Assembly (NCBI GenBank): GCA_903887005.1
Contig: CAISOH010000208.1
Span: 5,252-69,251, forward strand
DNA: 64,000 nt
DNA from: an uncultured Bacteroidota bacterium
Lineage (GTDB): Bacteria > Bacteroidota > Bacteroidia > Chitinophagales > Chitinophagaceae
Reading direction: 5' to 3'
Positions within the stretch are counted from its first letter, which is position 1. Each line of letters opens with the position of its first letter. This document shows positions 22,961-37,989 of this stretch, one piece after another. Both the position numbers and the translations under genes were made by a program. The notes beneath the pieces are model-generated. The model did no database searches. It saw nothing but the letters and a program-made list of their open reading frames with translations, and was not told the DNA's origin.

Positions 22961-22976
22961 ACTGATTAATATCAGT
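22961..22976. promoter_or_regulatory. FNR/CRP-box-like palindrome ACTGAT-TAAT-ATCAGT upstream of marR copy 1
   Basis: Perfect inverted repeat about 80 bp upstream of the ATG at 23053. It resembles the TTGAT-N4-ATCAA class of Crp/Fnr sites. Confidence 0.45.
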
Positions 22977-22983
22977 CCTCCAC

Positions 22984-22995
22984 TGACGAAGGTCA
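22984..22995. promoter_or_regulatory. TGAC-N4-GTCA palindrome upstream of marR copy 1 (candidate MarR operator)
   Basis: TGACGAAGGTCA lies 58 bp before the ATG. The same palindrome occurs at the same distance before copy 3 and further upstream of copy 2. Confidence 0.4.
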
Positions 22996-23052
22996 TTGCC
23001 ATGTTTCTTAACCAGCTTCAACTTTGTACCACCATTAAAAGTAGTAACAACA

Positions 23053-23535
23053 ATGACACTAGAAAAAGAAATACACCAGGTAAGGCCTTTCCGGAATGAT
23101 TATCACAGAGCATTTGTAAACATTATTTATTCCGGCAAATGGATGTTACAGTTTAGTAATGATTTGCTGAAACCATATAATTTAACCCCTCAGCAATATA
23201 ACATCCTTCGCATTTTAAGGGGCCAGTATCCCGAGGCAAGCACCATCATATATATCCGCGAAAGGATGCTTGACCGCATGAGCGATGCATCAAGAATTGT
23301 TGAGGTCCTCCGGAAAAAAGGATTGGTTGAAAGAAATGTTTGCGAAGGCAACAGGCGCAGGATGGATGTTTTAATAACTGAGAAAGGGCTCTATCTGCTG
23401 TCGGAAATAGAAAAGGAAGAAAATGAACGGATGGATAAACACCTCTCCGCCTTGGATGAACAGGAGATTAACCAGCTAAATCTCCTTCTTGATCAACTAA
23501 GGAACCATACGGATTACGCTTTAAAATCAGCTTAA
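23053..23535 (+). CDS. MarR-family transcriptional regulator, paralogue 1
   Basis: Winged-helix core LTPQQYNILRILRG...IRERMLDRMSDASRIVEVLRKKGLVER...RRRMDVLITEKG. The ATG at 23053 is chosen by alignment with the paralogues (MTLEKEI...). Confidence 0.85.
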   Translation: MTLEKEIHQVRPFRNDYHRAFVNIIYSGKWMLQFSNDLLKPYNLTPQQYNILRILRGQYPEASTIIYIRERMLDRMSDASRIVEVLRKKGLVERNVCEGNRRRMDVLITEKGLYLLSEIEKEENERMDKHLSALDEQEINQLNLLLDQLRNHTDYALKSA

Positions 23536-23553
23536 TCATATTTTAGCGGATCC

Positions 23554-23579
23554 TAAAGTATGCGAAAACGCATACTTTA
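23554..23579 (+). terminator. perfect hairpin between marR copies 1 and 2 (terminator or operator)
   Basis: taaagtatgcg-aaaa-cgcatacttta has an 11-bp perfect stem. There is no clear T-tract, so its function is uncertain. Confidence 0.35.
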
Positions 23580-23582
23580 ATC

Positions 23583-23594
23583 TGACAAAAGTCA
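23583..23594. promoter_or_regulatory. TGAC-N4-GTCA palindrome upstream of marR copy 2
   Basis: TGACAAAAGTCA, 141 bp before the ATG at 23735. Confidence 0.3.
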
Positions 23595-23734
23595 TTTGTT
23601 AGCCGCAGAACCACGAATACTTTTGTATTCAATCAAACTCAGCAGGGGAATTCAGTGCCATATGCCGTAGAATACGGGTAAAAACATCAACTGCTAAAGC
23701 TATGCTCATTTAAACCGTTAATCAATTATTTACA

Positions 23735-24190
23735 ATGCTACCCGAAATAGAAATACAACAAACCAGGAACTTCAGGAATAATTATCATAAAGCATTTGTA
23801 AACATCATCTCTACCGGAAAATCGATGTTGCAATTTAATTCCGATTTCCTGAAGCCATACAACATAACTCCTCAGCAATTTAATATCCTTCGCATTTTAC
23901 GGGGTAAATATCCCGAAGCGCTGACAATAATATATATACGTGAAAGAATGCTTGATCGCATGAGCGATGCATCAAGAATTGTTGAACTTCTCAGGAAAAA
24001 AGGACTAATTGAAAGAAATATTTGTGAAGGCAACAGGCGAAGGATGGATGTTTTGTTAACTCAAAAAGGGCTCAATCTGCTGGATGAAATAGAAAAAGAA
24101 AATGAACGGATAGATAATCGTCTCTCCTCTTTAAAGGAGCAGGAGATCCTCCAACTCAATTTCCTTCTTGATAAACTAAGAAATCCTTAA
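23735..24190 (+). CDS. MarR-family transcriptional regulator, paralogue 2
   Basis: 151 aa, collinear with paralogues 1, 3 and 4. Identical core IIYIRERMLDRMSDASRIVELLRKKGLIERNICEGNRRRMDVL. Confidence 0.85.
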   Translation: MLPEIEIQQTRNFRNNYHKAFVNIISTGKSMLQFNSDFLKPYNITPQQFNILRILRGKYPEALTIIYIRERMLDRMSDASRIVELLRKKGLIERNICEGNRRRMDVLLTQKGLNLLDEIEKENERIDNRLSSLKEQEILQLNFLLDKLRNP

Positions 24191-24216
24191 TCTTTTATTT
24201 TTCGTGAACAGATTGA

Positions 24217-24230
24217 CTGATGAACATCAA
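24217..24230. promoter_or_regulatory. FNR/CRP-box-like site CTGAT-GAAC-ATCAA upstream of marR copy 3
   Basis: It holds the same position relative to the TGAC-N4-GTCA palindrome as the site upstream of copy 1, about 23 bp upstream of it. Confidence 0.4.
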
Positions 24231-24239
24231 TATCATCGC

Positions 24240-24251
24240 TGACAAAGGTCA
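24240..24251. promoter_or_regulatory. TGAC-N4-GTCA palindrome upstream of marR copy 3
   Basis: TGACAAAGGTCA lies 58 bp before the ATG at 24309, the same spacing as for copy 1. Confidence 0.4.
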
Positions 24252-24308
24252 GTGCCTAGTACTACAGCATATTGCACATTTGTATCGTCAATAATAGTGA
24301 TAACAACA

Positions 24309-24764
24309 ATGACATTAGAAAAAGACATACAACAGATTAAGCCATTCAGAAATGATTACCATAAAGCATTTGTAAACATTATTTTTACCGGCAAATGGGT
24401 GTTACAGTTTAATTATGATTTGCTGAAGCCATATAATTTAACTCCCCAGCAATACAACATACTTCGCATTTTACGGGGTAAATATCCCCAGGCAAGTACA
24501 ATAATTTATATCCGCGAAAGGATGCTTGACCGCATGAGCGATGCATCAAGGATCGTTGAGCTCCTCCGGAAAAAAGGATTGATTGAAAGGAATATTTGTG
24601 AAGACAACAGGCGCCGGATGGATGTTTTAATAACCCAAAAAGGGCTTGACCTGCTGGAGGAAATAGAACAGGAAAATGATCGTGTTGACAGCCGCCTCTC
24701 TGCATTAAATAATAAAGAAATTATTCAACTCAATTCCCTTCTGGATAAGCTAAGAGATGCATGA
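24309..24764 (+). CDS. MarR-family transcriptional regulator, paralogue 3
   Basis: 151 aa starting MTLEKDIQQIKPFRNDYHKAF. By-eye identity to paralogue 1 is roughly 75-80 percent. Confidence 0.85.
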   Translation: MTLEKDIQQIKPFRNDYHKAFVNIIFTGKWVLQFNYDLLKPYNLTPQQYNILRILRGKYPQASTIIYIRERMLDRMSDASRIVELLRKKGLIERNICEDNRRRMDVLITQKGLDLLEEIEQENDRVDSRLSALNNKEIIQLNSLLDKLRDA

Positions 24765-24848
24765 TCTTTATTAACCATTATCATTATTCATTTATATTTC
24801 ATTTTTATTCTAATATTTGCCCTTATTAATTGAAAACCATTTGATTGA

Positions 24849-24862
24849 CTGATTAAAATCAA
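24849..24862. promoter_or_regulatory. FNR/CRP-box-like site CTGAT-TAAA-ATCAA upstream of the Crp/Fnr gene
   Basis: It lies within gactgattaaaatcaa, about 80 bp before the predicted start at 24938. Confidence 0.45.
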
Positions 24863-24870
24863 TTCTATTT

Positions 24871-24884
24871 ATGATTATAATCAT
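24871..24884. promoter_or_regulatory. second palindrome ATGAT-TATA-ATCAT upstream of the Crp/Fnr gene
   Basis: Perfect 14-bp palindrome with a TGAT-N4-ATCA core, 22 bp downstream of the first box. Confidence 0.4.
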
Positions 24885-24937
24885 TATCTTGCTCTGTAAC
24901 CATAAAGACATTTGCCAATAATTTTTGTAACATTTCT

Positions 24938-25714
24938 TTGTTTACAATTAACAGTAAAAATTTGAAAACCATCAATTGTAAATCCTGCTTATGTGCAGAT
25001 TGTTTTGTAAAGTTGTGTTCTCCGGAATGGGTTCAGCAAATTGATCTTCTGAAATACCAGACTCTTTATAAGAAAAATCAAAACATCATCAATGAAGGTT
25101 TCCGGATTTTTGGTATTTTCTTTATTTTAAAAGGAAAAGTGAAAGTTTTTTCTACCGGATTAAACGGAAGGGAGCAAATCGTACGTTTTGCCAGTGACGG
25201 ACATATCCTTGGACACAGAAGTATTGGAAATGAAGTATATCCGGTTAGCGCCACAGCTATGGAAGACTCTCTCATCTGCTTTATCGAAAATGATACGCTG
25301 AATGAAATGTTTGTTGCCAATCCCGAATTTGTAATAGCACTGATGATGTATTATTCCCGTGAACTGCGCAAGTTAGAAAACAGGGTTAAGAACATTGTGC
25401 AGATGAACATAAGGGAGAAAACTGCAGAGACATTATTATTGATGCTTGAAAACTTCGGTATAAACAGAAGTAATGAATTGAACCTGTCTTTCTCCCGCGA
25501 AGACTTTGCCAGCTTTGCAGGCAGCACCCGGCAGCAGGTAGCCATGCAACTTACCGAATTTGAAAAAGACGGTTTTATTGAAAAACGCGGAAAAAAAATA
25601 GCCATGAATAATATTGAAGGATTACAAAAAATCATTGGTGCATTCAACCTGCAAATACCCTCCAATACATATCATCAGCAGCCTGAAAAGCAGCTTAACC
25701 TTAAGAACAACTAA
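24938..25714 (+). CDS. Crp/Fnr-family transcriptional regulator with N-terminal cysteine cluster (FNR-like)
   Basis: cNMP-binding-like beta-roll (FFILKGKVKVF...GREQIVRF) and a C-terminal HTH (SREDFASFAGSTRQQVAMQLTEFEKDGFI). The N-terminus has CKSCLCADCFVKLC (5 Cys), and a further Cys lies in LICFIEN. TTG start, no in-frame ATG nearby. Confidence 0.85.
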   Translation: MFTINSKNLKTINCKSCLCADCFVKLCSPEWVQQIDLLKYQTLYKKNQNIINEGFRIFGIFFILKGKVKVFSTGLNGREQIVRFASDGHILGHRSIGNEVYPVSATAMEDSLICFIENDTLNEMFVANPEFVIALMMYYSRELRKLENRVKNIVQMNIREKTAETLLLMLENFGINRSNELNLSFSREDFASFAGSTRQQVAMQLTEFEKDGFIEKRGKKIAMNNIEGLQKIIGAFNLQIPSNTYHQQPEKQLNLKNN

Positions 25715-26192
25715 TCACTTTATAACCTTAAAAAGCTCCCCTGAAGCTCTTCTTGCTGAGTACCCACCTTTAAGCCAAAGGGAAAAATATGAATGACTGA
25801 ATTCCCCGCGGAATCTGACACGCTTTTAGTAAATTATTTATAAACACTCATTGTAAGGGTGAAATAATCTATTTATCCTTAAGACCCCTCCGGTAACCTG
25901 GATAAGTAAAATGAACTGCAAACAAATGCAACTCATACTTCTTAGCGGCCTGGGCTTAAATGGCCCTTTTAAATTCATTTTCCCCTCTTCTATACTGGTT
26001 TTTGCAGGAAATGTCCGAAATAATTTGTAAAAAGTGTCCGAAAAAAGACAAATTAATATAAGCTAAGTCATGAAATGTTTTTTTTATACCCGATACATTT
26101 ACACCAACAATTGTTATAACAACTGTTGTTGTATTTAAATGTTGTTATACAATTCAAAATAAAGTATAAAAATATTTATGATATAAAAGCAA

Positions 26193-26206
26193 CTGATTAA
26201 AATATT
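26193..26206. promoter_or_regulatory. half-site CTGATTAAAATATT upstream of the nrfC-like operon
   Basis: It shares AACTGATTAAAAT with the sites at 24847 and 33574. The right half is degenerate. About 105 bp before the ATG at 26310. Confidence 0.25.
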
Positions 26207-26309
26207 ACTACGGAATAAAACACCTTTATATCTTTTTTTATAGCGTAATTTTTATATTTAGCATATTTTTTTATAGTTTTTTATTAAACCATTTAAATTT
26301 TCCCATATA

Positions 26310-27299
26310 ATGGCAGACCAAAATAACAAAAACGAAGACGGCTCCACCCTACCCGCTAGTAATTCAGGCAGGCGTAATTTCCTCAAGTTCGGTGCTTTGG
26401 CAGCAGGGCTTACTGTGGTGGGTGGCGGACTAACGAAAGTATTTTCCGGTGAAAAAGGTCAGAAAGTAAAATTGCTCTCCCCTGACGGCAAAGTGTACGA
26501 GGCGAATTCCGATCATCTGAAAGAGTTTCGTCCACCACCGGTTAGCAACGAAGAAGCGCGCAAAGGAATTCCGAACAAAAAATTCGTTATGGTAATTGAC
26601 CTGGCCAAATGCGACGGATGCAAGAAATGCACTGAAGCATGCCAGGCAATGCACTATACGGAATCTGACCGGGAATGGATCAAAGTATTCAAAATGCAGG
26701 AAGCAAATGCAGAAGCTCCTTTTTATTTTCCCAAACCCTGTTTCCATTGCGATAACCCTACCTGCACCAAAGTTTGTCCGGTGAATGCTACCTTCAAAAG
26801 GGAGGATGGAATAGTGCTGATAGATAATGAACGCTGCATAGGTTGCCGCATGTGCATGGCTGCCTGCCCTTATTCTACCCGTTTTTTCAACTGGAGCCAT
26901 CCAAGTTCAGCCCAGACCGCTGCACTTGGCAATATAAAGTATTCACCTGAACAGAGTGTTCCCCGCAGAATGGGTACTGTAGAAAAATGTGATTTCTGTC
27001 CGGATATGCTCCGTCAAGGTAAGATGCCTGCCTGCGTTAGCGGATGCCCGATGAACGTCATTTATTTTGGCGACCAGAATGAAGATGCAGTCACCAATGC
27101 AGCAGGAGTAACAGTTAAGTTAAGCAAATTACTTGCAGACAATGCCGGGTATAGGCACCTGGAAGAATTGGGAACCGAGCCGCGTGTATATTATCTGCCA
27201 CCCAAAAACAGAAAATATCCTGTTCCCGAAATGGAAAATATCGGAACAGATAAGAAGGTAAAAAAACACAATACAGACATGGGCAATATGGGAATGTAA
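26310..27299 (+). CDS. Tat-exported 4Fe-4S ferredoxin-type subunit (NrfC/PsrB/ActB2-like)
   Basis: Twin-arginine signal SGRRNFLKFGALAAG. Four Cys clusters: CDGCKKCTEAC, CFHCDNPTCTKVCP, CIGCRMCMAACP and CDFCPD...CVSGCP. Confidence 0.88.
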   Translation: MADQNNKNEDGSTLPASNSGRRNFLKFGALAAGLTVVGGGLTKVFSGEKGQKVKLLSPDGKVYEANSDHLKEFRPPPVSNEEARKGIPNKKFVMVIDLAKCDGCKKCTEACQAMHYTESDREWIKVFKMQEANAEAPFYFPKPCFHCDNPTCTKVCPVNATFKREDGIVLIDNERCIGCRMCMAACPYSTRFFNWSHPSSAQTAALGNIKYSPEQSVPRRMGTVEKCDFCPDMLRQGKMPACVSGCPMNVIYFGDQNEDAVTNAAGVTVKLSKLLADNAGYRHLEELGTEPRVYYLPPKNRKYPVPEMENIGTDKKVKKHNTDMGNMGM

Positions 27300-27347
27300 C
27301 ACTGTTATTAAACAAATAATTAATAATTAACAAAAAACTTTTCAATT

Positions 27348-28808
27348 TTGGCAAACGAAAAATATAATCTGAAAAACGAGATAGAAACCCTCCGCGAAGA
27401 TTGCCTTCGCCCTACAAGGACTTTTGGGCGCTCTACTCAAATATGGGTAGGTTGTTTACTTGTTATCATTGGATGGGGGCTTTATTGCTACATTCATCAA
27501 CTCAGGGACGGGTTGGGGGTAACAGCCATGCGAAACTATGTTTCCTGGGGGTTATACATTTCCACCTTTGTATTCTTTATAGGCATCAGCCACTCCGGCA
27601 CGCTTGTATCAGCCATCCTCCGTATTACCAAACAGGAATGGAGACGGCCTATAACACGTTCAGCAGAGCTGCTCACATTCGTATCCCTGTGCTTCGGCGG
27701 AATTCAACCCATCATTGATTTGGGACGCCCGGACAGGATCATGAACCTTGTCTTTTTCGGAAGGATACAATCACCACTCATATGGGATATTATCTCCATC
27801 ATGACCTACTTTACAGGCAGTACGGTATTCCTTTTCCTCCCTATGATACCTGATATGGCGCTTTGCCGGGACAGGTTAACCGTTGTCGATACCCGGTATA
27901 AGAAATTTAAAAAATGGTTGTACAAATTCCTGGCTATCGGATGGCAAGGCACTAAATCACAATGGCACCGTTTGGAATTGACCATGACCATTATGACTAT
28001 CGTGATTATTCCGGTGGCAGTATCCGTGCACACAGTGGTAAGTTACATTTTCGCCATGACATTGCGCCCGGGTTGGGACAGTACCGTATTCGGCCCCTAC
28101 TTTGTGGTTGGCGCGCTTTACTCAGGTTCTGCCTGTGTAATATTAGGAATGGCAGCATTCCGGAAACTGTACCACCTGGAAAAATATATCACTCCCCGGC
28201 ATTTTGATTTGATTGGACGTGTAGTATTGGCGCTGACAATGATTTATGCTTACATGAATCTGAATGAATACTGGATACCTGCTTATAAAATGGCAACCGC
28301 TGAAGGACATTTGCTGAACGACCTGTTTACCGGCAGTTACTCCACAGCATTCTGGACATGCCAGTTCGGTACCGTATTGTTGCCTATTGTTATTATGGCG
28401 TTCCCTAAAGGGCGAAAAATAACACCGCTTGTTATTACCTGCATTATTATAGCGGCGGGTGCATGGGTAAAAAGATACCTCATAGTGGTGCCAACACTAT
28501 TACATCCCTTTATGCCCATACAGGAAGTTCCGGGTACATGGTCCACTTACTTTCCTAACTATGTAGAGTTCTCTGTTACTGCAGCATGCCTGGCTGGAAT
28601 ATTTCTAATCATTACCCTCTTTTCAAAACTCTTCCCCATGATGGCTGTTTGGGAAGTAGAAGAAGGAATAGAAATAGATCACGATAAGCAAATGGCAATA
28701 GAACTCAGGGAGATAAGGTTAGCAGAGGAAGCGAAATTACTTGACCTGGCCAAAACAAATGGAGGAGTTGTAAATGAAGGTAACAAATCAATCACACAAC
28801 CAGCATAA
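27348..28808 (+). CDS. NrfD/PsrC/ActC-like polytopic quinol-interacting membrane subunit
   Basis: 486 aa with about 10 or more TM segments. SWGLYISTFVFFIGISHSGTLVSAILR...WRRPITRSAE matches my memory of the NrfD/ActC family consensus. It lies directly downstream of the NrfC-like gene. TTG start. Confidence 0.8.
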   Translation: MANEKYNLKNEIETLREDCLRPTRTFGRSTQIWVGCLLVIIGWGLYCYIHQLRDGLGVTAMRNYVSWGLYISTFVFFIGISHSGTLVSAILRITKQEWRRPITRSAELLTFVSLCFGGIQPIIDLGRPDRIMNLVFFGRIQSPLIWDIISIMTYFTGSTVFLFLPMIPDMALCRDRLTVVDTRYKKFKKWLYKFLAIGWQGTKSQWHRLELTMTIMTIVIIPVAVSVHTVVSYIFAMTLRPGWDSTVFGPYFVVGALYSGSACVILGMAAFRKLYHLEKYITPRHFDLIGRVVLALTMIYAYMNLNEYWIPAYKMATAEGHLLNDLFTGSYSTAFWTCQFGTVLLPIVIMAFPKGRKITPLVITCIIIAAGAWVKRYLIVVPTLLHPFMPIQEVPGTWSTYFPNYVEFSVTAACLAGIFLIITLFSKLFPMMAVWEVEEGIEIDHDKQMAIELREIRLAEEAKLLDLAKTNGGVVNEGNKSITQPA

Positions 28809-28823
28809 TAAATCAAATATATT

Positions 28824-29705
28824 ATGAAGATGAACAACATAATCAAAAAAACAGCGCTTGCAATAACCTTAACCGGATTGTTTTCCATAACTGCATCCGC
28901 ACAGGACCAGGGTAAGAGTGAAGCCACTATTGTAATGTCGTACAGCAAAAATGCAGACCTGAGCAAAACTGCAACCGCAATCATAAAAGTGAAAAATAAA
29001 GATGGAAAGTTTGTGGCGGCAAAAAATGCAAAGGTTAATTTCTATCTGATGCACGACAAGCAGGAGCAACTGCTGAAAAGCGCCAATACAGATAATACCG
29101 GCCTGGCAGTTATTGTGCTTCAGAAGGATATGCCATTAGATGACAGCCTCTCTTTCACCATCGTGGCAAAGGTTGAAAATGATCCTTTGTATGAAAATGC
29201 TTCCGAACAGATGCATTACAAAGACGCCAACCTAAGCATAAAACTAAATCCTGCCGATACCGGACGGGTAGTTATCGCTAAAGTAACGCAAACAGGTAAA
29301 GACGGAAAAGAAATAGCTATAAAGGGTACTGAAGTGAAATTTTATGTAAAGCGCTTGTTTGGCAATATGCCTGCTGCCGAAGAATATGCCGTAAGCACGG
29401 AGGATAATGGGGAAGCTTCTTTTATTATTCCAAAAAACATACCCGGGGATTTAGAAGGTAAAGTCACAGTTGTTGCGAAAATTGAAGACAATGATAAATT
29501 CGGGAATGTAGAAGGCAATGCAGATACAAAATGGGGCAAGCCGCTTGCGACAATAAAAGATCCTTTTCCACGTGAGTTATGGAGTCCTTATGCTCCGTTG
29601 CCATTAGTAATTACTATTTCAACACTCTTTGGTGGTGTGTGGTTCACTTATTTTTTCCTCTTCTACCAGTTAGTAAAAATAAAAAAAGACACAGCAAAAG
29701 CTTAA
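28824..29705 (+). CDS. hypothetical periplasmic protein with two beta-sandwich-like repeats and a C-terminal TM anchor
   Basis: Signal peptide. Internal repeat (KVKNKDGKFVAAKNAKVNFYL / TQTGKDGKEIAIKGTEVKFYV). C-terminal hydrophobic helix LPLVITISTLFGGVWFTYFFLFYQLV. Confidence 0.55.
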   Translation: MKMNNIIKKTALAITLTGLFSITASAQDQGKSEATIVMSYSKNADLSKTATAIIKVKNKDGKFVAAKNAKVNFYLMHDKQEQLLKSANTDNTGLAVIVLQKDMPLDDSLSFTIVAKVENDPLYENASEQMHYKDANLSIKLNPADTGRVVIAKVTQTGKDGKEIAIKGTEVKFYVKRLFGNMPAAEEYAVSTEDNGEASFIIPKNIPGDLEGKVTVVAKIEDNDKFGNVEGNADTKWGKPLATIKDPFPRELWSPYAPLPLVITISTLFGGVWFTYFFLFYQLVKIKKDTAKA

Positions 29706-29736
29706 TTCCTAACAATAAACATAAATAACAAACAAT

Positions 29737-30174
29737 ATGAAAAAAAACATAGCACAAGTAAAGAAAATAAAATATCCGGGGTTCCTGGTAACCGGAGCTA
29801 TAGCAGGCGCAATAACTCTTCTGTATGCCTTCGCTCCCATGCCGGGGAAAAACACTCCATGGATTGCTCCGGCTACAGCAGACGCCGTAAAAAATCCTAT
29901 TGCATCGGACGCTGCGTCTATTGAAGCCGGTAAAGCCGTTTATAAAAAAAGCTGCTACGACTGCCATGGCAAAAAAGGGAAAGGCGATGGTCCGAAAAGC
30001 GGGGAATTAGACCAAAACCCACAGGACTTCACCAAACCGGAATTCCAAAAACAAACAGATGGCGCACTCTTCTGGAAAATCTCAGAAGGCAGAAAGCCAA
30101 TGCCTTCTTTTAAAAGTGAAATTACTAAGGAGCAGCGCTGGCAGGCCATCAATTATATACGTACACTGAAATAG
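29737..30174 (+). CDS. membrane-anchored monohaem cytochrome c (ActE/CBB3-type class I)
   Basis: CYDCHGKKGKGDG haem-binding motif, distal PMPSF Met, N-terminal TM anchor. Paralogous to ORF 35522-35929 (shared QTDGALFWKI...PMPS...NYIRTL). Confidence 0.85.
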   Translation: MKKNIAQVKKIKYPGFLVTGAIAGAITLLYAFAPMPGKNTPWIAPATADAVKNPIASDAASIEAGKAVYKKSCYDCHGKKGKGDGPKSGELDQNPQDFTKPEFQKQTDGALFWKISEGRKPMPSFKSEITKEQRWQAINYIRTLK

Positions 30175-30248
30175 AACACATCAAAAAGGCAACACACTCA
30201 CAAAATAAATAAACAATTATAATCAATTAACAATTTAATCTCATAAAT

Positions 30249-31526: not shown

Positions 31527-31548
31527 AAATTCACCATTAATTTTTTTC

Positions 31549-31950
31549 ATGATGAAAAAAATAGCAATAACAACGCTTGCACTTGGTGTACTGTCAGTTG
31601 CTCTAATCACAGGTTGTCAAAAAGACACCACGCTTTACATCAGGAATGAAGTGGCAGTTTCCGGGACCGTTTCTTTCAAAAAAGACCTGGTACCCATATT
31701 CACTGCTAACTGCGCTTTAAGCGGTTGCCATGCAAGTGGTGGTCATAAACCGGATTTATCGTCTGACAAAGCATATAATTCATTGAAAAGTGGAAAATTT
31801 GTTGACACAACGACAGCCGCCAGCAGCATCATATACGAGAGGTTAACAGGAAAACTTAGCCCTGCTATGCCTATGGGTAAAGCAACCAATCCATCCAATA
31901 TCAACTCGCTGATACTTGCATGGATAAAACAAGGGGCAAAGAACAATTAA
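31549..31950 (+). CDS. lipoprotein with Planctomycete-cytochrome-c-like (PSCyt1-like) segment carrying a CX4CH motif
   Basis: Lipobox LITGC. FTANCALSGCHASGGHKPDLSS...IIYERLTG...PAMPMG resembles PSCyt1-type domains, but with C-x4-CH instead of CxxCH. Confidence 0.45.
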   Translation: MMKKIAITTLALGVLSVALITGCQKDTTLYIRNEVAVSGTVSFKKDLVPIFTANCALSGCHASGGHKPDLSSDKAYNSLKSGKFVDTTTAASSIIYERLTGKLSPAMPMGKATNPSNINSLILAWIKQGAKNN

Positions 31951-31978
31951 TTGAATCATAAAATTAAATTAATTTAAT

Positions 31979-32914
31979 ATGAAAATACTAAAAAAAATAA
32001 AACAGTCTCATGGTATTTGTCTGTTGATAATTGCCTGCTGCTGTTTACCTTCTGCCAGTGGCTATGCCCAGGACGGCAATAGTGCAGATAACACTGCACC
32101 TGTAGAAAAGACCTACACAAGAAATACCTTTGCAGGCAATATGATTATTGACAATCAATCGGTAATGGTGCCATTGGAAAAAACCATTGAGTTTGCCATT
32201 CAGCACCGCTTTGGCATAATCAATAACGGGTATGCCGATTTTTATGGAATGTTCGCTCCGGCAAACATTCGCCTGGGAATGAACTATACACCAATTAAAA
32301 ACCTGCAATTAGGTATTGGCTTAACAAAAGGTAATATGCTTGTGGACGGTAACCTCAAATATGCCATTATCAAACAAGCGGAAAGCGGTGGTTCCCCGGT
32401 AAGCGTTACCTATTATGGAGATATGGCAATATCAACCATTCCCCAGGCAGGTAATTTCGTAAACAATGCCGACAGAATCTCTTATTTTAACCAGTTGATT
32501 ATAGCGAGGAAAGTTACCAAAGAATTCTCTGTGCAGGTATCGCCAAGTTTATCTTACTTTAATAATATAGTGGGATACGTGGCTCCCGATGGAAGCATTC
32601 AGCCGACAATGAAAAACGCAAATTTTTCCATTGCCTTCAGCGGCAGGTATAAGGTGACCGGGGCTATGAGCATAATGGTAAATTATGATCAGCCTCTTAC
32701 GCAAAATCTGACCAATAACCCGCTTCCAAATATCAGTCTTGGATTGGAGTTCAGTACAACCGGACATACTTTCCAGATATTTGCAACAGACTATCAAGGA
32801 ATCATTCCTCAATATAACAACGTCTTTAACCAGATTGACTGTTCAAAGGGACAATTCCTGATTGGGTTTAACATAACCAGGAGATGGTATCATGACTCAG
32901 ACAAAGAGAAATAA
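31979..32914 (+). CDS. putative outer-membrane beta-barrel protein
   Basis: Signal peptide. Alternating hydrophobic/polar strands with aromatic girdle residues throughout (e.g. FSIAFSGRYKV, SLGLEFST, FLIGFNITRRW). Confidence 0.45.
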   Translation: MKILKKIKQSHGICLLIIACCCLPSASGYAQDGNSADNTAPVEKTYTRNTFAGNMIIDNQSVMVPLEKTIEFAIQHRFGIINNGYADFYGMFAPANIRLGMNYTPIKNLQLGIGLTKGNMLVDGNLKYAIIKQAESGGSPVSVTYYGDMAISTIPQAGNFVNNADRISYFNQLIIARKVTKEFSVQVSPSLSYFNNIVGYVAPDGSIQPTMKNANFSIAFSGRYKVTGAMSIMVNYDQPLTQNLTNNPLPNISLGLEFSTTGHTFQIFATDYQGIIPQYNNVFNQIDCSKGQFLIGFNITRRWYHDSDKEK

Positions 32915-32939
32915 ATTTTTAGGTAAGTGAGTAATGATT

Positions 32940-32969
32940 GCGCGCGCAGAGAAGTTCTGCGCGCGCTTT
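32940..32969 (+). terminator. GC-rich rho-independent terminator ending the seven-gene operon
   Basis: gcgcgcgcaga-gaagt-tctgcgcgcgc (11-bp GC-rich stem) followed by ttt, 26 bp after the stop at 32914. It stands out in an AT-rich context. Confidence 0.65.
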
Positions 32970-33011
32970 AGGAATCCAATGTTTCGCTGCGGAATGTCAA
33001 TGGTTAGTACT

Positions 33012-33467
33012 ATGTCACTTGAGAAAGAAATACACCAGGTCCGGCCATTCAGGAATGAATACCATAAAGCAACTGTCAACATTATTTATACTGGCAAATG
33101 GATGTTGCAGCTTATCTTAGATGTGCTGAGGCCATATAAATTAACGCTCCAGCAATACAATATCCTTCGCATCTTACGGGGTAAATTTCCTGAAGCAATT
33201 ACAGTAACTTACTTTCGCGACAGATTGCTTGACAGGATGAGCGATGCCTCAAGAATAATTGAAGTCCTCAGAAAAAAAGGATTGGTAAAAAGAAATATCT
33301 GCGAAGAAAACAGGCGCAGGATGGATGTTTTAATAACTCAAAAAGGAATCCAGCTGCTTGATGAAATAGAAAAAGAAAATGAGCGGATGGATAAGTACTC
33401 TTCCTCATTAAATGACCAGGAAATAATTCAACTCAATTTCCTGCTCGATAAGCTAAGAAATCTTTAA
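33012..33467 (+). CDS. MarR-family transcriptional regulator, paralogue 4
   Basis: MSLEKEIHQVRPFRNEYHKA... is collinear with paralogues 1-3. The ATG at 33012 lies downstream of the terminator hairpin, so the 5' extension in the ORF track is rejected. Confidence 0.85.
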   Translation: MSLEKEIHQVRPFRNEYHKATVNIIYTGKWMLQLILDVLRPYKLTLQQYNILRILRGKFPEAITVTYFRDRLLDRMSDASRIIEVLRKKGLVKRNICEENRRRMDVLITQKGIQLLDEIEKENERMDKYSSSLNDQEIIQLNFLLDKLRNL

Positions 33468-33556
33468 TCTTTAATCTTTATTGCAAATTCCCACCTCAAT
33501 TTAATCTGCATATCTGTTTATGCAATAAATAAATATATCAATTTGGAGTAATACCC

Positions 33557-33608
33557 GATTGTTGCAAAAATAAAACTGATTAAAATCAGTTTTATTTTTG
33601 CAACAATC
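33557..33608. promoter_or_regulatory. perfect 52-bp palindrome (25-bp arms, 2-nt centre) with a CTGAT-TAAA-ATCAG core
   Basis: gattgttgcaaaaataaaactgatt-aa-aatcagttttatttttgcaacaatc. All 25 arm positions were verified as complementary. It lies between marR copy 4 and the porin operon. Confidence 0.8.
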
Positions 33609-33653
33609 ATTACTTTTACACTAACAACTGATGTTATAACATAATTCGGTATG

Positions 33654-33691
33654 ACATCAATGGAAATAACATCAATTGGCTAAACATCAAT
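33654..33691. promoter_or_regulatory. three direct repeats of ACATCAAT spaced exactly 15 bp apart
   Basis: ACATCAAT occurs at 33654, 33669 and 33684, about 200 bp upstream of the porin gene start. Confidence 0.5.
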
Positions 33692-33889
33692 TAAACAGAC
33701 ATAATCATAAATAAATAGCATTATTCTGTTTTTCTATGGCATGAAATTTTTGATTTCGATTTAAATGAAAATTTGAGTTGCAAATAATTTAAATTTAAAA
33801 CAAATATGAACATTTTCTTGTCCGGATAATATTGCAATACAGGATTCAATCAACTACACACAATTTTCATTAACATAAAAACAAAGCGT

Positions 33890-35092
33890 ATGAAACCAAA
33901 TAAATTAATTACAAAAGTTTTATTGTTTGCTGTATTCGCTTTTTTAAAGGCGAATACTTCAATTGCACAGGGAACCGACAATACAGATGTATCCAAACAA
34001 GTATCCGCACTGAAACCAGGAGAGAGTAATTTCATGATGGTAGGCCTGGTAACGTTTGGTTTTGTAAATCAAAACATCACCACCACCGGACTATCTCCCA
34101 ACAAAACAAATAGCATAGGAGACGCAGACCGTTATGAATTCAGCCCGATGTTCCTTTGGCGCCATGGCGATAAACTGCTTGCCGAATTTGAACCATCATG
34201 GGATGGCAATGCAATAGGCGTAAACTGGGCTGATGTGTCCTATTATGTTGCTCCCGGTTTTATAGTAAGAGGGGGGTATTTGGTTTTGCCTTTCGGAACC
34301 TATTCAAAGCGTTTGGCCGCCGGATGGATCAATAAATTACCTTCTGATCCTTATGGTATGGATATGCCCGGAAGTGATTTTGGAGTAGAAGTGGAAGGTG
34401 GATTCCCATTAGGAAGTATGAAATGGAGCTATGATATTGCGGTTTCAAACGGGTTTCAGTTGAACCCGAACGGACAAATTGCAGGCGTTGGGATTAATGC
34501 GATAAATAATGGCAAAACAGTAACAGGCAGGTTAGCTTTATTACCGCTTTCCAATTCAAGCCTGGAAATTGGTGTTTCAGGCTTAATGGGTAGCCTTGCT
34601 ACACCTACAGGCGATTCCAATATTTATAATAACCCAATGGCCTCTATGTACGCAGTTGACTTCAATTTTATAAAAAATATTAATCCGGTACAGATTAATA
34701 TTAAAGGGCAATATAATATTTCAAATATAAATAAACAGACTTATTCAAGTCCTGATTCTTCACTTCCAAAATATTCCTTTGAAAATAATGCAAGTTCCTA
34801 CTTTGCACAACTGTCATTAAGGCCTTCAAAATCAAAAAATAAGATCCTTAGAAATTTTGAGTTGGCCGGACGTTATGTAAACTATACCACTCCCAAGCAG
34901 TCTTTATGGGGACAAAATTATTCCGAAATGGACATATGCCTGGATTACTGGCTAAGCTGGAGAACCGTAATTAAGTTAGGGTATGAAAGTACTAAGTCAG
35001 ACGGGACTACATCCCAGTCCGTTTCAACAGGATTAGATGGCACTTCTACAACTGTAAACAGAATGATTATCCAATTTTCCACCGAATTTTAA
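33890..35092 (+). CDS. outer-membrane porin-like beta-barrel protein
   Basis: Signal peptide, beta-strand periodicity, and a C-terminal ...IQFSTEF ending in Phe as in OMP sorting signals. 400 aa, similar in size to phosphate-selective porin O/P-like proteins. Confidence 0.6.
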   Translation: MKPNKLITKVLLFAVFAFLKANTSIAQGTDNTDVSKQVSALKPGESNFMMVGLVTFGFVNQNITTTGLSPNKTNSIGDADRYEFSPMFLWRHGDKLLAEFEPSWDGNAIGVNWADVSYYVAPGFIVRGGYLVLPFGTYSKRLAAGWINKLPSDPYGMDMPGSDFGVEVEGGFPLGSMKWSYDIAVSNGFQLNPNGQIAGVGINAINNGKTVTGRLALLPLSNSSLEIGVSGLMGSLATPTGDSNIYNNPMASMYAVDFNFIKNINPVQINIKGQYNISNINKQTYSSPDSSLPKYSFENNASSYFAQLSLRPSKSKNKILRNFELAGRYVNYTTPKQSLWGQNYSEMDICLDYWLSWRTVIKLGYESTKSDGTTSQSVSTGLDGTSTTVNRMIIQFSTEF

Positions 35093-35104
35093 AAAACAAC
35101 TTTT

Positions 35105-35389
35105 ATGAAAATAACGAGTATTCAAAAAATAGCAACAATAATAATAATTTGCTCTGGAATTTTTGGCCTGATTACTGTAAATGGCTGCGTGGAAAGCAAA
35201 CAGGTAGCTGCAAAAAGCGGTGCGCAACTGTGGGGAGAAAATTGCTCAAGATGCCATAATATGCCTGCTCCTGCTACTTTTTCACAGGAACAATGGAAAA
35301 CCGTAGGTATGCATATGCAAAGCCGTGCGCTGCTTACTAATAAGGAAAAGGATAAAATTGTAGAATTTCTGCAGCAATCAAGTAATTAA
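35105..35389 (+). CDS. small monohaem cytochrome c (lipoprotein-like)
   Basis: CSRCH haem motif. Hydrophobic N-terminus ending in VNGC. 94 aa. Confidence 0.65.
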   Translation: MKITSIQKIATIIIICSGIFGLITVNGCVESKQVAAKSGAQLWGENCSRCHNMPAPATFSQEQWKTVGMHMQSRALLTNKEKDKIVEFLQQSSN

Positions 35390-35423
35390 TATACAATATC
35401 CCGATTCTAATTTCAATATAGTG

Positions 35424-35497
35424 GCTGTCTCAAAAGTAAATGAAATAATACAGTTAGTTTTAATTAAAGCTATTATAATTTCAACTTTTGAGACAGC
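35424..35497 (+). other. long-range inverted repeat within the operon (14-bp perfect arms, 46-nt spacer)
   Basis: gctgtctcaaaagt (35424-35437) pairs with acttttgagacagc (35484-35497), between two cytochrome c genes. Confidence 0.6.
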
Positions 35498-35521
35498 ATG
35501 CTAAATTTAAAATAATTAAAA

Positions 35522-35929
35522 ATGAAAAAAATAACAAATGGCGCCTCACTGCTGATTTTAGCCAATGTAATATGCTTTTCAACTTTTGCTCAGCAAAAAG
35601 TATTTACCGCTCCGGCTTCAGCTGATGGTATGCAAAATCCATTTAAAGACAATGCAGCAGCAACTGCAAATGGCAAAACAACCTATACCACCTTTTGTGT
35701 GCCATGCCATGGCGATAAAGGTAAAGGCGATGGCGTTGCAGCCGCTGGATTACAAAAACAACCTGCTGATCATACTTCAGCTAAAATTCAGGCGCAAACT
35801 GATGGCGCTTTGTTTTGGAAGATATTTACCGGCAACAATCCTATGCCCAGTTATAAGATGCTATCTCAAACCCAGATATGGGAATTAGTGAATTATATAC
35901 GCACCTTATCTAAAGCTAAGAAAAAGTAG
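35522..35929 (+). CDS. periplasmic monohaem cytochrome c (class I, CBB3/ActE-type)
   Basis: Signal peptide. CVPCHGDKGKGDG. Distal PMPSY Met. Paralogue of 29737-30174. Confidence 0.85.
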   Translation: MKKITNGASLLILANVICFSTFAQQKVFTAPASADGMQNPFKDNAAATANGKTTYTTFCVPCHGDKGKGDGVAAAGLQKQPADHTSAKIQAQTDGALFWKIFTGNNPMPSYKMLSQTQIWELVNYIRTLSKAKKK

Positions 35930-36051
35930 CAAAATTAATTAAAATAGCACCTATTTGATTTGGCGAAAACAGGTGTACTATTTCCATATTGCGTCTTTCT
36001 GGTTTAGGTTTATAATAACGGTATATTAGAGTATTATTAAATACTGCGTCT

Positions 36052-37326
36052 ATGAAATATGGCAAACAATTCTGGATTACAGTTGCCCTGTTTAATCTAT
36101 GTATTGTAGCAGCTTTGGGCGTTTTGTTGAGAACCAAAATGGTCTTCCCCCTGGAATCAATTGAATTCAGCAATATTCTGGAAGCGCATTATCATTTCGC
36201 AATGAATGGATGGATAACATCCACCTTAATGGTTTTGATGGTATATGAACTACTGCCGGAGTTAATTAATAGAAAACCTGTTTATCAATGGATGCGTTGG
36301 GGGATGTTGCTCAGTAGTTATGGTTTGGCATTGAGCTTCATTATTGATGGTTATACAACAGTTACAATGATAATTATTACTTTTTACATTGTCCTGGTAT
36401 TTTTATTTTCATGGATATTCATCAAGGACTTAATTAAAGCAAAGCCGGTTAAGCCGGTATTAATACTCTGTACTTGCGCACTGGTATCTTTGGTGTTGTC
36501 TTGTATAGGCCCGGAAACTTTTCTGGGTTTTGTGCTTGCCGCCCATTCCATGAATATACTTTTATTCCGCGATACTGCTTATACTTATTTGCACTTTCAA
36601 TACAACGGTTTTTTTCCGCTGGCTATTTTTGCGTTATTTTTCAATTACATTGGCAGTAAGGATATTTCATTGAAAGCACAGAAGTATATGCATAAAATAG
36701 CCATCATGCTGCCTGTAATTATTCTACCCACTCTTTTTTTATCCTATCTCTGGCATTACCCCAATGTGTACGTACGTTCAATTGCAGCTTTGGGATGCAT
36801 TTGCATGTTTGTGTTTATGTTCCTCTTCTACAGATTACTAAGTTCTGTATGGGCGCATTTAAAACTAATGGACCGGTATTCAAAGTTTTTAGGCGTCTTA
36901 TCTATTATTTCGTTGACTGTAAAAGTCATTTTACAAACCGGGACTTTGATACCATATGTTGGTATTATTGTTTTCGGTAACAGGCCAATTATCATAGGAT
37001 ATATTCATTTGGTAATGCTTGGCTTTATTACCTTATTTCTTCTGTCTTATTTTTTGCAAAATGCCTTTCTAAATAGCAATACGACAGTTACCAAAACCGC
37101 CATTCTTATTTTTGCATCAGGAGTAGTGATTAATGAATTATTATTGATGCTGCAGGGCCTCAGCCAGATTCTTATGAAGTTTTATCCAATTTACGGATGG
37201 CTGCTTTGGGGAGCAGTGATATGGTTGTTAACAGGAGCGGTCGCAATCCTGGCTTCAAGGCTAAAATACAGGAAGCTTGTTTCCGTCAATATCCTTGAAA
37301 ACAGGCACAAAATTATGACCCGTTGA
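36052..37326 (+). CDS. 12-TM integral membrane protein with three His-containing intramembrane motifs (possibly NnrS-like, unassigned)
   Basis: 424 aa and almost entirely hydrophobic. Recurring motifs HYHFAMNGW, YLHFQYNGFF and YIHLVMLGF lie in separate helices. No HCO-type HH motif. Confidence 0.6.
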   Translation: MKYGKQFWITVALFNLCIVAALGVLLRTKMVFPLESIEFSNILEAHYHFAMNGWITSTLMVLMVYELLPELINRKPVYQWMRWGMLLSSYGLALSFIIDGYTTVTMIIITFYIVLVFLFSWIFIKDLIKAKPVKPVLILCTCALVSLVLSCIGPETFLGFVLAAHSMNILLFRDTAYTYLHFQYNGFFPLAIFALFFNYIGSKDISLKAQKYMHKIAIMLPVIILPTLFLSYLWHYPNVYVRSIAALGCICMFVFMFLFYRLLSSVWAHLKLMDRYSKFLGVLSIISLTVKVILQTGTLIPYVGIIVFGNRPIIIGYIHLVMLGFITLFLLSYFLQNAFLNSNTTVTKTAILIFASGVVINELLLMLQGLSQILMKFYPIYGWLLWGAVIWLLTGAVAILASRLKYRKLVSVNILENRHKIMTR

Positions 37327-37461
37327 TTTTTAAAATATTATTATTGAAATTGAAAAAATTGTATAAATTTATGATGCATGTAAAACCATCCAAATCTTAA
37401 TTCGAAGTTTCGTTTGATCACAAGTTCAATTATTTTATAAAAAAGTTAAACAAAAAATGTT

Positions 37462-37935
37462 ATGAAAAAAACTTATTTATTTGCATTAATGATTTCAGCA
37501 AGCCTGGTCATTTTTAGCTGTGGTAACTCCCAACAAAATAATGAAGATAGCAAAAATGCAGCGGCTACTTCTGCTCCCAAACCTGCCGAAGGCGGAGACC
37601 AGGGTGTGGGAAGTTATAAGAATGTGGAATTGACGCACCCGGTTGATCAAAGTATGGCAGAAAAAGGAAAAGAAATTTATGGCGTGAAATGCATTGCCTG
37701 CCATAAAATTACAGCCGAGAAGATGATAGGCCCCGGATGGAAGGGCGTTACAGAGAGAAGGAGGCCCGAGTATATACTGAATTTTGTAACCAATACAGAC
37801 GAAATGCTTGACAAAGATCCTAATGCCAAAGCCTTACTTTCTGTATGCATGGTAAGAATGCCTAACCAGCACCTTACGGATATTGAAGCCCGTTCGGTAC
37901 TTGAATTCATGCGTAAAAACGATGGAAAAAATTAA
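37462..37935 (+). CDS. cytochrome c lipoprotein (c551/c552-like)
   Basis: Lipobox LVIFSC. CIACHKITAEKMIGPGWKGV and distal VRMPNQ. It resembles the small cytochromes encoded in Bacteroidota denitrification loci. Confidence 0.8.
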   Translation: MKKTYLFALMISASLVIFSCGNSQQNNEDSKNAAATSAPKPAEGGDQGVGSYKNVELTHPVDQSMAEKGKEIYGVKCIACHKITAEKMIGPGWKGVTERRRPEYILNFVTNTDEMLDKDPNAKALLSVCMVRMPNQHLTDIEARSVLEFMRKNDGKN

Positions 37936-37955
37936 AAAGATAAATTTTTAAAAAA

Positions 37956-37989
37956 GGCATTTCTGTTAAATCAGGAATGCCTTTTTTTT
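37956..37989 (+). terminator. rho-independent terminator ending the second cytochrome operon
   Basis: ggcatttctg-ttaaat-caggaatgcc followed by tttttttt. Confidence 0.8.

Follow-up and report, generated by a model that had tools for sequence, protein, structure and literature searches.

A composite respiratory locus of uncultured Bacteroidota with an ActC-like quinol module, putative haem lipoproteins and a predicted NorB-fold membrane protein

Where do electrons leave a respiratory gene island that encodes a quinol-interacting module, several cytochromes and no recognisable terminal enzyme? The question is raised by 17 consecutive open reading frames (ORFs), all on the + strand (positions 22996-37935), in a 64-kb stretch of DNA from an uncultured bacterium of the Chitinophagaceae (phylum Bacteroidota; contig CAISOH010000208.1), the whole of which we call the window. 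An earlier note, made from the letters alone, had rightly counted 17 same-strand genes and had taken them for one complete electron-transport system running from the quinone pool to the periplasm or outer membrane. We find instead that the island is a composite respiratory locus, in which two conserved modules share candidate operators and an FNR-type regulator. Module A is a seven-gene cassette whose core arrangement is beyond chance, recurring in 39 independent loci; Module B is a separate set of five genes, among them one for a protein with 12 transmembrane (TM) helices, here called TM12. The reading that we favour, though with slightly less than even confidence, is that the island is a low-oxygen, N-oxide-linked branch leading from menaquinol to outer-membrane cytochromes and serving respiration or detoxification.

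Family assignments were made by scanning all 17 proteins with the Pfam and NCBIfam profile hidden Markov models (HMMs), and motifs were counted. The inventory comprises four MarR regulators and one Crp/Fnr-family regulator, a 16-Cys ferredoxin with a Tat signal, an NrfD-family membrane protein, a 293-aa Big_1-like protein, four proteins with a single CXXCH motif, a 133-aa CX4CH protein, an EB_dh protein, a DUF5777 barrel, a 400-aa porin-like protein and TM12. The five transcription factors, the four canonical monohaem cytochromes c and the one CX4CH protein that had been listed earlier are all borne out. So, at the level of sequence profiles, is the claimed lack of a terminal enzyme: no characterised terminal reductase or oxidase was detected in the 17 proteins, the remaining window or the insertions in related loci. 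No molybdoenzyme, NrfA, NosZ, MccA or multihaem protein was found in the island or the remaining window ORFs scanned, no NirK, NirS or COX1-family protein in the window, and no more than one haem motif in any island protein. The claim needs qualifying, however, since the modelled TM12 has the fold of the catalytic subunits of NO reductases and oxidases, its family occurs in denitrification clusters, and the EB_dh protein is a probable c-type cytochrome.

The island is bounded on the left by a palindromic box and on the right by a terminator-like hairpin, and its flanks are housekeeping genes (peptidase S51, malic enzyme); the window outside the island holds housekeeping genes or genes for cargo of the type IX secretion system (T9SS). 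An origin as a mobile element was considered and set aside, the flanks being housekeeping and no integrase or transposase being found among the ORFs scanned. Neither the gene order nor either module is described in the literature searched, which included a family-wide review of NrfD proteins (PMC8076601) and a survey of new NO reductase (NOR) families (PMC11214002), so that the island does appear to be uncharacterised, as had been proposed.

A seven-gene cassette with an ActC-like subunit

Which of the 17 genes belong together? The EB_dh protein, taken as probe, has 209 word-indexed homologues, and 550 cluster representatives at E <= 1e-3 among 1.84 billion; 39 independent EB_dh-seeded Bacteroidota loci from genomes and metagenomes formed the synteny sample, and across these the seven-gene core recurs. 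The order EB_dh, CX4CH, DUF5777 is kept in all 37 complete loci, and the order NrfC, NrfD, Ig-fold anchor in 28 of 28, with the anchor gene always after that for NrfD. NrfC/NrfD are found in 32 of the 39 loci and a class-I cytochrome c in 36, and the two triplets occur in either relative order. The trio of EB_dh, CX4CH and DUF5777 genes also stands without the cassette, in the cultured Mucilaginibacter xinganensis and in two metagenome-assembled genomes (MAGs), whereas the full cassette is present in one Mucilaginibacter MAG. In none of the loci examined does a recurrent catalytic gene lie within the cassette or beside it, and no molybdopterin domain is present in the 39 loci.

The regulators vary between genomes. 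An FNR-like gene is found in 14 of the 39 loci and a MarR gene in eight; in four to six others the place immediately upstream of nrfC is taken by a NarX-like kinase (PilJ + HisKA_3) together with a NarL-type regulator. In evolutionary terms, then, the units are the three-gene trio, the seven-gene cassette and a variable set of regulators. Of the Module B genes, the porin400/cytc94 pair is found in six of the 39 loci and TM12 in none. The idea of one complete system thus has to be given up, porin400, cytc94, cytc135, TM12 and cytc157 forming a module of their own, as does any view of the regulators as a fixed part of it; the proposed regulation by oxygen or redox state fits the FNR-type regulator as a recurrent neighbour. 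YceI-like (polyisoprenoid- or quinone-binding) lipoproteins are encoded near both cassette and TM12 loci (L006 4276-4899, L037 5142-5984, L051 16331-16894 and L052 547-1176).

The first triplet combines a Tat-exported protein with four Cys4 motifs, a membrane subunit and an Ig-fold anchor. The first of these has cysteines conserved among its homologues. Its best NCBIfam match is DsrO (185 bits, cutoff 200), and it scores 129 bits against the NrfC model TIGR03149 (cutoff 378); among structures it matches PsrB (2vpw_B, 2e-29) and the C-terminal FeS domain of ActB (82 bits), and it also resembles ArrB. The membrane subunit aligns over residues 31-439 with residues 38-445 of ActC from the Alternative Complex III (ACIII) of Flavobacterium johnsoniae (6btm_C, E = 8.7e-65), with like scores for 6lod_C, 8k9e_C and 6f0k_C, and these matches stand well above those to DsrP (115 bits, cutoff 350), QrcD and HybB. 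Judged by sequence, it is clearly an ActC homologue, closer to ActC than to NrfD, PsrC or DsrP. The pair described earlier as NrfC-like and NrfD-like is thus present, with its membrane member refined to ActC-like, and the statement that ACIII parts are absent holds for ActA and ActB1 but not for ActC. No useful sequence match in the Protein Data Bank (PDB) was obtained for the Ig-fold anchor, porin400 or DUF5777; the anchor has no conserved Cys or His and is for this reason probably structural.

Taken together, Module A would be a cut-down derivative of ACIII. The ActC-like subunit would oxidise menaquinol, and the electrons would then travel through the NrfC-like protein along its four FeS clusters, with the Ig-fold anchor probably acting as scaffold for the NrfC-NrfD complex, and pass to the membrane-anchored monohaem cytochrome c. 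The final carriers would be the EB_dh-fold CX3CH and FoxE-like CX4CH lipoproteins of the outer membrane, working with the DUF5777 barrel. The direction, from menaquinol to the outer-membrane cytochromes, is taken as in ACIII, and the path from quinone pool to outer-membrane-associated proteins put forward earlier is plausible in these terms. The novel haem proteins would be either the last electron carriers or catalysts.

Might the ACIII-like part serve a more general purpose? Module A could be a low-oxygen mini-ACIII, a menaquinol:cytochrome c oxidoreductase that feeds the general periplasmic cytochrome c pool, the trio being a loosely coupled accessory and the terminal enzymes, such as cbb3 or caa3 oxidases, NirK, cytochrome c-dependent NOR (cNOR) or NosZ, being conventional ones encoded elsewhere. 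NosGH fills a comparable role for clade II NosZ. The ActC homology of the membrane subunit speaks for such a role, as does the dependence of Bacteroidota on ACIII instead of bc1 (PMC8076601, PMC8552683). Some genomes have a second NrfCD-anchor copy with an ACIII-like three-Cys first-cluster motif, the homologues of cytc157 include cytochromes that precede nosZ, and in one genome (L057) an NrfCD-anchor-cytochrome unit lies beside an Rrf2-TM12-RIC-nos cluster. Against this, in the 32 loci that contain it, NrfCD-anchor is physically joined to the EB_dh trio, in two permuted arrangements, which argues for a specific partnership, and the invariant association with an outer-membrane barrel and two non-canonical cytochromes is left unaccounted for. 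We consider the mini-ACIII explanation decidedly unlikely.

The second NrfC-NrfD-anchor subtype, with the first-cluster motif CxxxxxCxxxC, was seen as upstream copies in L014, L021, L027 and L034, and also in L001, L011, L013, L035 and L043. Since this motif has three cysteines, not four, the first cluster would be 3Fe-4S-like, as in ACIII. Both subtypes stand in tandem in some genomes.

The partners of the quinol module are the members of the trio. For the EB_dh protein the family assignment made earlier stands, with a Pfam score above cutoff, but an invariant CX3CH haem-c motif had been overlooked. In the family alignment the lipoprotein residue C24 and C179, C183 and H184 are invariant, as are many Asp and Arg residues, and M199 and H413 are conserved; the CX3CH motif is kept in 24 of 26 distant full-length representatives. 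The AF2 model (pLDDT 78) matches in Foldseek NxrC (7b04_C, 1.7e-8), EbdC (2ivf_C, 5.6e-7) and also CBM9. The protein is therefore probably a c-type cytochrome, and the candidate sixth ligands, His413 and Met199/His200, suggest a six-coordinate haem of the electron-transfer type. The C-X-K-(D/E)2 signal that exports lipoproteins to the surface of Bacteroidota (PMC5080379) is matched by none of 27 EB_dh sequences, 25 of which have the Lys at +3 and lack the acidic pair, and surface exposure by that route was rejected.

In the CX4CH lipoprotein, which has a FoxE/PSCyt1-like monohaem cytochrome domain, the corresponding stretch reads C-Q-K-D-T, only a partial match to the same signal. Its profile finds the iron oxidase FoxE as best PDB relative (5mab_A, E = 3.1e-5, over about 50 C-terminal residues), with weak matches to the haem domain of hydrazine synthase and to PccH, and Cytochrome_CBB3 is matched weakly by eight of 17 family members. 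The DUF5777 family of the barrel is far larger than the set of cassettes (3534 matches in total).

These partners also bring to mind metal respiration. Module A could be an outer-membrane conduit that exchanges electrons with Fe(II)/Fe(III), Mn or humic quinones, the barrels and lipoprotein cytochromes acting as a split Cyc2-type porin-cytochrome (DUF5777 with the CX4CH and EB_dh proteins, porin400 with cytc94), and the ACIII-like module tying the menaquinone pool to extracellular reduction or to the reverse flow in Fe(II) oxidation. Two adjacent pairs of barrel and lipoprotein cytochrome, the relationship to FoxE and, weakly, to PccH, and the fact that EB_dh/DOMON-fold haem proteins are electron shuttles, not catalysts, in all solved cases are consistent with this, as are the T9SS-secreted proteins with CxxCH in their N-terminal part that three genomes encode within or close to the cassette, and the archaeal surface anchors of distant EB_dh-CX3CH homologues. 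The 38 genome matches, moreover, all come from MAGs of uncultured Bacteroidota sampled in boreal lakes, permafrost peat and groundwater, habitats assumed to be rich in iron and humic matter. Yet every cytochrome here is monohaem, where the known trans-outer-membrane conduits except Cyc2 are multihaem, and the DUF5777 barrel domain, of about 250 residues, is probably too narrow for a cytochrome. The EB_dh protein lacks the surface-export signal, the FoxE match is limited to the C-terminal 50 residues, a high potential is to be expected of His/Met haems, and no iron-related regulator or gene lies nearby. On balance a conduit, the chief rival to the reading we favour, seems to us rather unlikely.

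Several relatives of these proteins deserve mention in their own right. Of the CxxCH N-terminal-domain proteins (L026 5183-6841; L031 5315-6835; L027 506-1333 and 17853-20687), which are possibly secreted or surface cytochromes, those of L026 and L031 also show SprB repeats and a T9SS C-terminal sorting domain in Pfam; the genes lie inside the cassette in L026 and L031 and on both sides of it in L027. A divergent second EB_dh paralogue (L037 6154-7536, 460 aa) has CX3CH and an inserted class-I cytochrome c domain (CNTCH), and would be a natural dihaem fusion of two cytochrome types. A CBM9_1 + DUF5916 protein (L051 4622-6793, - strand), with a DOMON-like domain and a predicted barrel, is transcribed divergently from a stand-alone trio and may be a fused analogue of that trio's architecture. 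Five distant EB_dh-CX3CH homologues (P0428, P0441, P0452, P0480, P0493) have no lipobox; their C-terminal anchors, of the TM or PGF-CTERM-like type, and their PKD-like repeats suggest that forms of this cytochrome exist at the cell surface outside the Bacteroidota, probably including Archaea.

The 12-helix protein and its neighbourhood

TM12 had been noted earlier as a His-motif protein with 12 TM helices. This description stands, and the model adds a fold to it. The protein has 868 word-indexed homologues, in Chitinophagaceae and Sphingobacteriaceae, and no Pfam, NCBIfam or PDB sequence match, profile level included. Its AF2 model (pLDDT 91) gave 32 Foldseek matches at E <= 0.001, all of them haem-copper oxidase or NO reductase entries, the best being the NorB subunits of two cNORs (3o0r_B, TM 0.75, E = 1.9e-7; 4xyd_A, TM 0.74). 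By its predicted structure, then, TM12 has the haem-copper-oxidase subunit-I fold.

Three more specific identities were tried, of which two were rejected. TM12 is not a canonical haem-copper oxidase, since 27 members of the family have no match to the COX1 profile, even at E <= 5, and the alignment leaves only four invariant His (H46, H48, H181, H319) where canonical enzymes have six. Nor, at the level of sequence, is it NnrS: there is no PF05940 match, and hhalign against Sinorhizobium meliloti NnrS gave a probability of 0.1%, the NnrS ORF in that comparison having been picked by its place beside a putative nirK, its hydrophobicity and an HxHE motif, with no profile search. Finally, a circular permutation or rotation of the ligands stays speculation, the evidence being a local hhalign match of 37 residues (35% identity, probability 7-32%) between helix II (AHxHFAxxGW) and the HxH region of NorB helix X.

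What does the genomic context of TM12 tell us? Among 80 metagenome loci its neighbours are cytc157-type cytochromes (58), RIC (31), Rrf2 (28), NosZ (20), cytc135 (16), NirK (14), cytc94 (14), porin400 (13) and canonical NORs (11, of which six are cNOR-like COX1 proteins and five quinol-dependent NORs). At least 13 metagenome loci have Module B and no cassette. TM12 adjoins Rrf2, RIC/hemerythrin and nosZ-L-D-F-Y in cultured members of Mucilaginibacter, Taibaiella and Chitinophaga. In other genomes homologues of cytc157 flank TM12 and precede nosZ, and porin400 is paired with a cytc94 gene in six cassette loci and 13 TM12 loci. These recurring neighbours make Module B a conserved unit of the denitrification and nitrosative-stress neighbourhood of Bacteroidota, and its NorB-fold membrane protein would belong to the same NO/N2O setting. 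Because canonical NORs often co-occur with it, TM12 may be an accessory protein or a functional analogue of NnrS and not the main NO reductase.

A bolder proposal would make catalysts of both novel proteins, the EB_dh CX3CH lipoprotein being a new terminal reductase (for instance for nitrite or NO, on an AniA-like outer-membrane tether) and TM12 a new NO reductase, the two together forming a short, hitherto overlooked denitrification pathway. The combination of FNR, NarXL-like and NsrR-like regulation does resemble that of nitrite and NO respiration, TM12 has the NorB fold and the nos/nirK context, and the EB_dh family has its many invariant Asp and Arg residues. The EB_dh fold is, however, without catalytic precedent, and the conserved His413 and Met199/His200 point to a six-coordinate electron-transfer haem; TM12 already co-occurs with NirK and canonical NORs in many genomes, and the cassette loci have no N-oxide genes nearby. 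We regard this pathway as highly improbable.

In a wider form, that the island hides two new kinds of respiratory haem protein, categorically new as terminal haem enzymes, we hold the idea to be unlikely. The first kind may be the EB_dh/DOMON-fold CX3CH cytochromes which, with the FoxE-like CX4CH protein and the small barrel, would form the substrate-reacting end of an ACIII-derived quinol dehydrogenase, and may thus be a terminal enzyme of a new type that reduces or oxidises an N-oxide or a metal. The second may be a branch of the haem-copper oxidases acting on NO in Bacteroidota denitrification clusters, with its ligands rotated by one four-helix repeat; these may comprise HxH in helix II, a single His in each of helices VI and X, and Asn-Glu (N361/E362) in place of His-His.

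Regulation and the link between the modules

The two modules lie side by side in four divergent genomes, namely that of the window and those of L050, L057 and L105. A palindromic box with a CRP/FNR-type TGA-N6-TCA core (ACTGATTAATATCAGT) lies upstream of operons in both, with copies ahead of MarR1, of MarR3 (24216-24231), of the FNR gene (24848-24863) and of the porin operon (33575-33590), and a weaker one near 26191, upstream of nrfC. The pattern ACTGATTAAAATCAGT has eight matches in the window against 1.13 expected, a number reached in none of 100 shuffles; the eight matches represent five distinct positions, three palindromic sites being counted on both strands. Four of these positions are intergenic and all four lie inside the island, with no intergenic copy elsewhere in the window; the fifth is a three-mismatch site within the DUF5777 coding region. 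The FNR consensus TTGAT-N4-ATCAA was tried as an alternative operator and is not enriched (72 matches, 62 expected). A second palindrome, TGTTATAACA, has two exact copies against 0.24 expected, upstream of nrfC and of the porin gene (33632-33641), one in each of the island's two long intergenic regions. The perfect inverted repeat ahead of the porin gene could serve the porin operon as operator, terminate the MarR4 operon that precedes it, or do both; it gives spurious matches to Rfam miRNA and sRNA models. No riboswitch or sRNA was found in the long intergenic regions, where the only matches were spurious ones to hairpins; a scan for sigma-70 promoters is uninformative for Bacteroidota.

The Crp/Fnr-family protein is a distant member of the FNR group, as it scores 79 bits against the Fnr NCBIfam model (cutoff 228). 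Its cysteines follow the pattern C14-x2-C17-x4-C22-x4-C27...C113, making it a candidate [4Fe-4S] sensor of O2 or NO, and this FNR-style pattern is largely kept among 20 cassette-linked homologues, some weaker-scoring ones lacking the fourth N-terminal Cys. The MarR paralogues are mutually 70-80% identical (MarR1 75-80% to the other three). Each (23050-24764, 32994-33467) has exactly one Cys, at the same wing position in ERN[VI]CE[GDE]N, as would suit an OhrR-type MarR that senses redox state through one Cys. The DNA immediately ahead of the island (22631-22849, + strand) contains a 72-aa ORF for a lipoprotein-like peptide, extremely rich in Gly, Tyr and His (GGYYYGYSYPVYGGVYYRGHYHHDNGYHGGHRGG...), with a signal peptide ending in LSSC; such a peptide could bind metal.

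On the reading we favour, the FNR-type regulator and the MarR paralogues would probably induce both modules when oxygen drops or N-oxides appear. In this scheme the gene content, predicted folds, conserved motifs, synteny and genomic associations are observed, and we infer the attachment of haem, the direction of electron flow, the pairing of regulators with boxes and the identity of the acceptor. Several observations weigh against the scheme. Within 10 kb of the 39 EB_dh-seeded cassettes there is no nirK, nor, nos, Rrf2 or RIC gene, so that the N-oxide link of Module A comes down to the four adjacencies and the types of regulator. Several genomes have the trio by itself, lacking both a dedicated electron input and a regulator, and the palindrome of the island is not conserved in related loci. 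Canonical NORs accompany TM12 in 11 loci, and TM12 may itself be non-catalytic, as two of the six canonical haem-copper-oxidase His are missing. The outer-membrane barrel, too, is left unexplained by a purely periplasmic pathway.

Table 1. Coordinates of the modules, genes and DNA elements in the window
Feature	Position	Strand	Profile match or remark
Palindromic box, 16 nt, CRP/FNR-type core	22961-22976	.	upstream of MarR1
MarR paralogue 1, likely start near 23050	22996-23535	+	PF12802
MarR paralogue 2	23735-24190	+	
MarR paralogue 3, likely start near 24306	24252-24764	+	
Crp/Fnr-family regulator	24938-25714	+	cNMP_binding, HTH_Crp_2
Palindrome TGTTATAACA, candidate MarR operator	26112-26121	.	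upstream of nrfC
Module A, seven-gene cassette	26310-32914	+	
NrfC/ActB2-like Tat-exported FeS protein, 329 aa, four Cys4 motifs (four predicted FeS clusters)	26310-27299	+	Fer4_11, RRNFLK motif
ActC-like NrfD-family quinol-interacting membrane subunit	27348-28808	+	PF03916, 105 bits
Periplasmic Ig-fold (Big_1-like) protein, 293 aa, signal peptide, C-terminal TM anchor	28824-29705	+	
Monohaem class-I cytochrome c, CYDCH, Met122, N-terminal membrane anchor	29737-30174	+	
EB_dh-fold lipoprotein, Cys179-x3-Cys183-His184 (CYAACH)	30249-31526	+	PF09459, 48.3 bits (cutoff 33.3)
CX4CH lipoprotein, 133 aa, invariant CALSGCH, conserved Met107-Pro	31549-31950	+	
DUF5777 outer-membrane beta-barrel, conserved His76 (QHRFG) and His263	31979-32914	+	PF19089, 248 bits
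MarR paralogue 4	32934-33467	+	
Perfect 25-nt inverted repeat, 52 nt in total, centred on box ACTGATTAAAATCAGT	33557-33608	.	
Module B: porin400, cytc94, cytc135, TM12, cytc157	33890-37935	+	
porin400, 400-aa porin-like outer-membrane protein, signal peptide, C-terminal Phe	33890-35092	+	no Pfam match
cytc94, 94-aa lipoprotein monohaem cytochrome c, CSRCH	35105-35389	+	porin partner
cytc135, soluble monohaem class-I cytochrome c, CVPCH	35522-35929	+	
TM12, predicted haem-copper-oxidase subunit-I fold, closest to NorB	36052-37326	+	
cytc157, 157-aa lipoprotein monohaem cytochrome c, CIACH	37462-37935	+	
Terminator-like hairpin closing the island	37950-37987	+	

Elsewhere in the window, a 2730-aa T9SS cargo protein (5214-13406, + strand) with NHL/teneurin-type propellers, many Big_2 domains and a Por_Secre_tail, and a second T9SS protein at 41495-43678, are unrelated to the island and confirm its Bacteroidota host. 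Bacteroidota, many of which carry nosZ, abound in soils, lakes and peat, and so they matter for the cycling of N2O and iron. The locus reveals a widespread, unstudied cassette linking quinol to outer-membrane cytochromes, and a family of the haem-copper-oxidase fold, with more than 860 database relatives, that sits in denitrification clusters and escapes HMM annotation. Should a terminal redox reaction be performed by either module, a respiratory pathway is missing from the metabolic reconstructions of its carriers. Since the trio is present in the cultured M. xinganensis, TM12 in cultured Mucilaginibacter, Chitinophaga and Taibaiella, and the full cassette in a Mucilaginibacter MAG, these questions are directly testable.

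Comparison with known systems

How does the island compare with the respiratory systems already described? Its nearest relative is ACIII (ActABCDEF; 6BTM from F. johnsoniae), with which it shares a full-length ActC homologue, a docked periplasmic poly-FeS protein, a monohaem cytochrome c as output and the host phylum. In contrast to ACIII, it has no pentahaem ActA, molybdopterin-like ActB1, ActD or ActF. Its FeS protein is separate (329 aa), has its own Tat signal and matches only the C-terminal FeS part of ActB; there is a single NrfD-family gene, the third gene encoding an Ig-fold protein with one TM helix; and the output would go to the EB_dh and CX4CH lipoproteins.

The NrfCD, NosGH and DsrOP modules likewise combine a Tat-exported four-cluster ferredoxin with an NrfD-family subunit, the monohaem cytochromes recalling NosC1/C2, and nrf operons share the FNR-type regulation and, in other genomes, the NarL-type. 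The island differs from NrfABCD in having no NrfA (pentahaem, CXXCK), no NrfB and no multihaem protein, from NosGH in having no NosZ partner, and from DsrMKJOP in having no DsrMKJ, the scores for DsrO (185 against 200) and DsrP (115 against 350) both falling below cutoff. The gamma subunits of type II DMSO reductases (EbdC, NxrC, SerC) share the EB_dh fold, the periplasmic location and a beta-like FeS protein as neighbour. Whereas those subunits hold haem b, the EB_dh protein of the island probably binds haem c covalently through CX3CH; it is also twice the size, with insertions, is lipid-anchored and has no molybdenum alpha subunit.

TM12 shares with NorB of cNOR, and with haem-copper oxidase subunit I, the predicted 12-helix fold and a neighbouring membrane- or lipid-anchored monohaem cytochrome c, and with norB and nnrS a context of nirK, nor, nos, NsrR and RIC. 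It differs from NorB in having no COX1 match, four invariant His in place of six, and HxH in helix II and not helix X, and it often lies beside a canonical NOR; to NnrS, as represented by the ORF chosen by position, hhalign finds no detectable similarity. The CX4CH lipoprotein shares with FoxE of Rhodobacter ferrooxidans the C-terminal signature of its haem domain, WIKQGAK, but would carry a single CX4CH haem where FoxE has two CXXCH haems, and it is not accompanied by foxY, foxZ, or PQQ- or DMT-type neighbours.

Cyc2-type porin-cytochromes, compared by description only, resemble the island in that a barrel gene adjoins a monohaem cytochrome gene, and differ in that cytochrome and barrel are here separate proteins; MtrAB and PioAB conduits differ in placing a multihaem cytochrome in a large barrel. 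We conclude that the island represents a quinol module of the NrfCD/ACIII type with an unprecedented set of partners.

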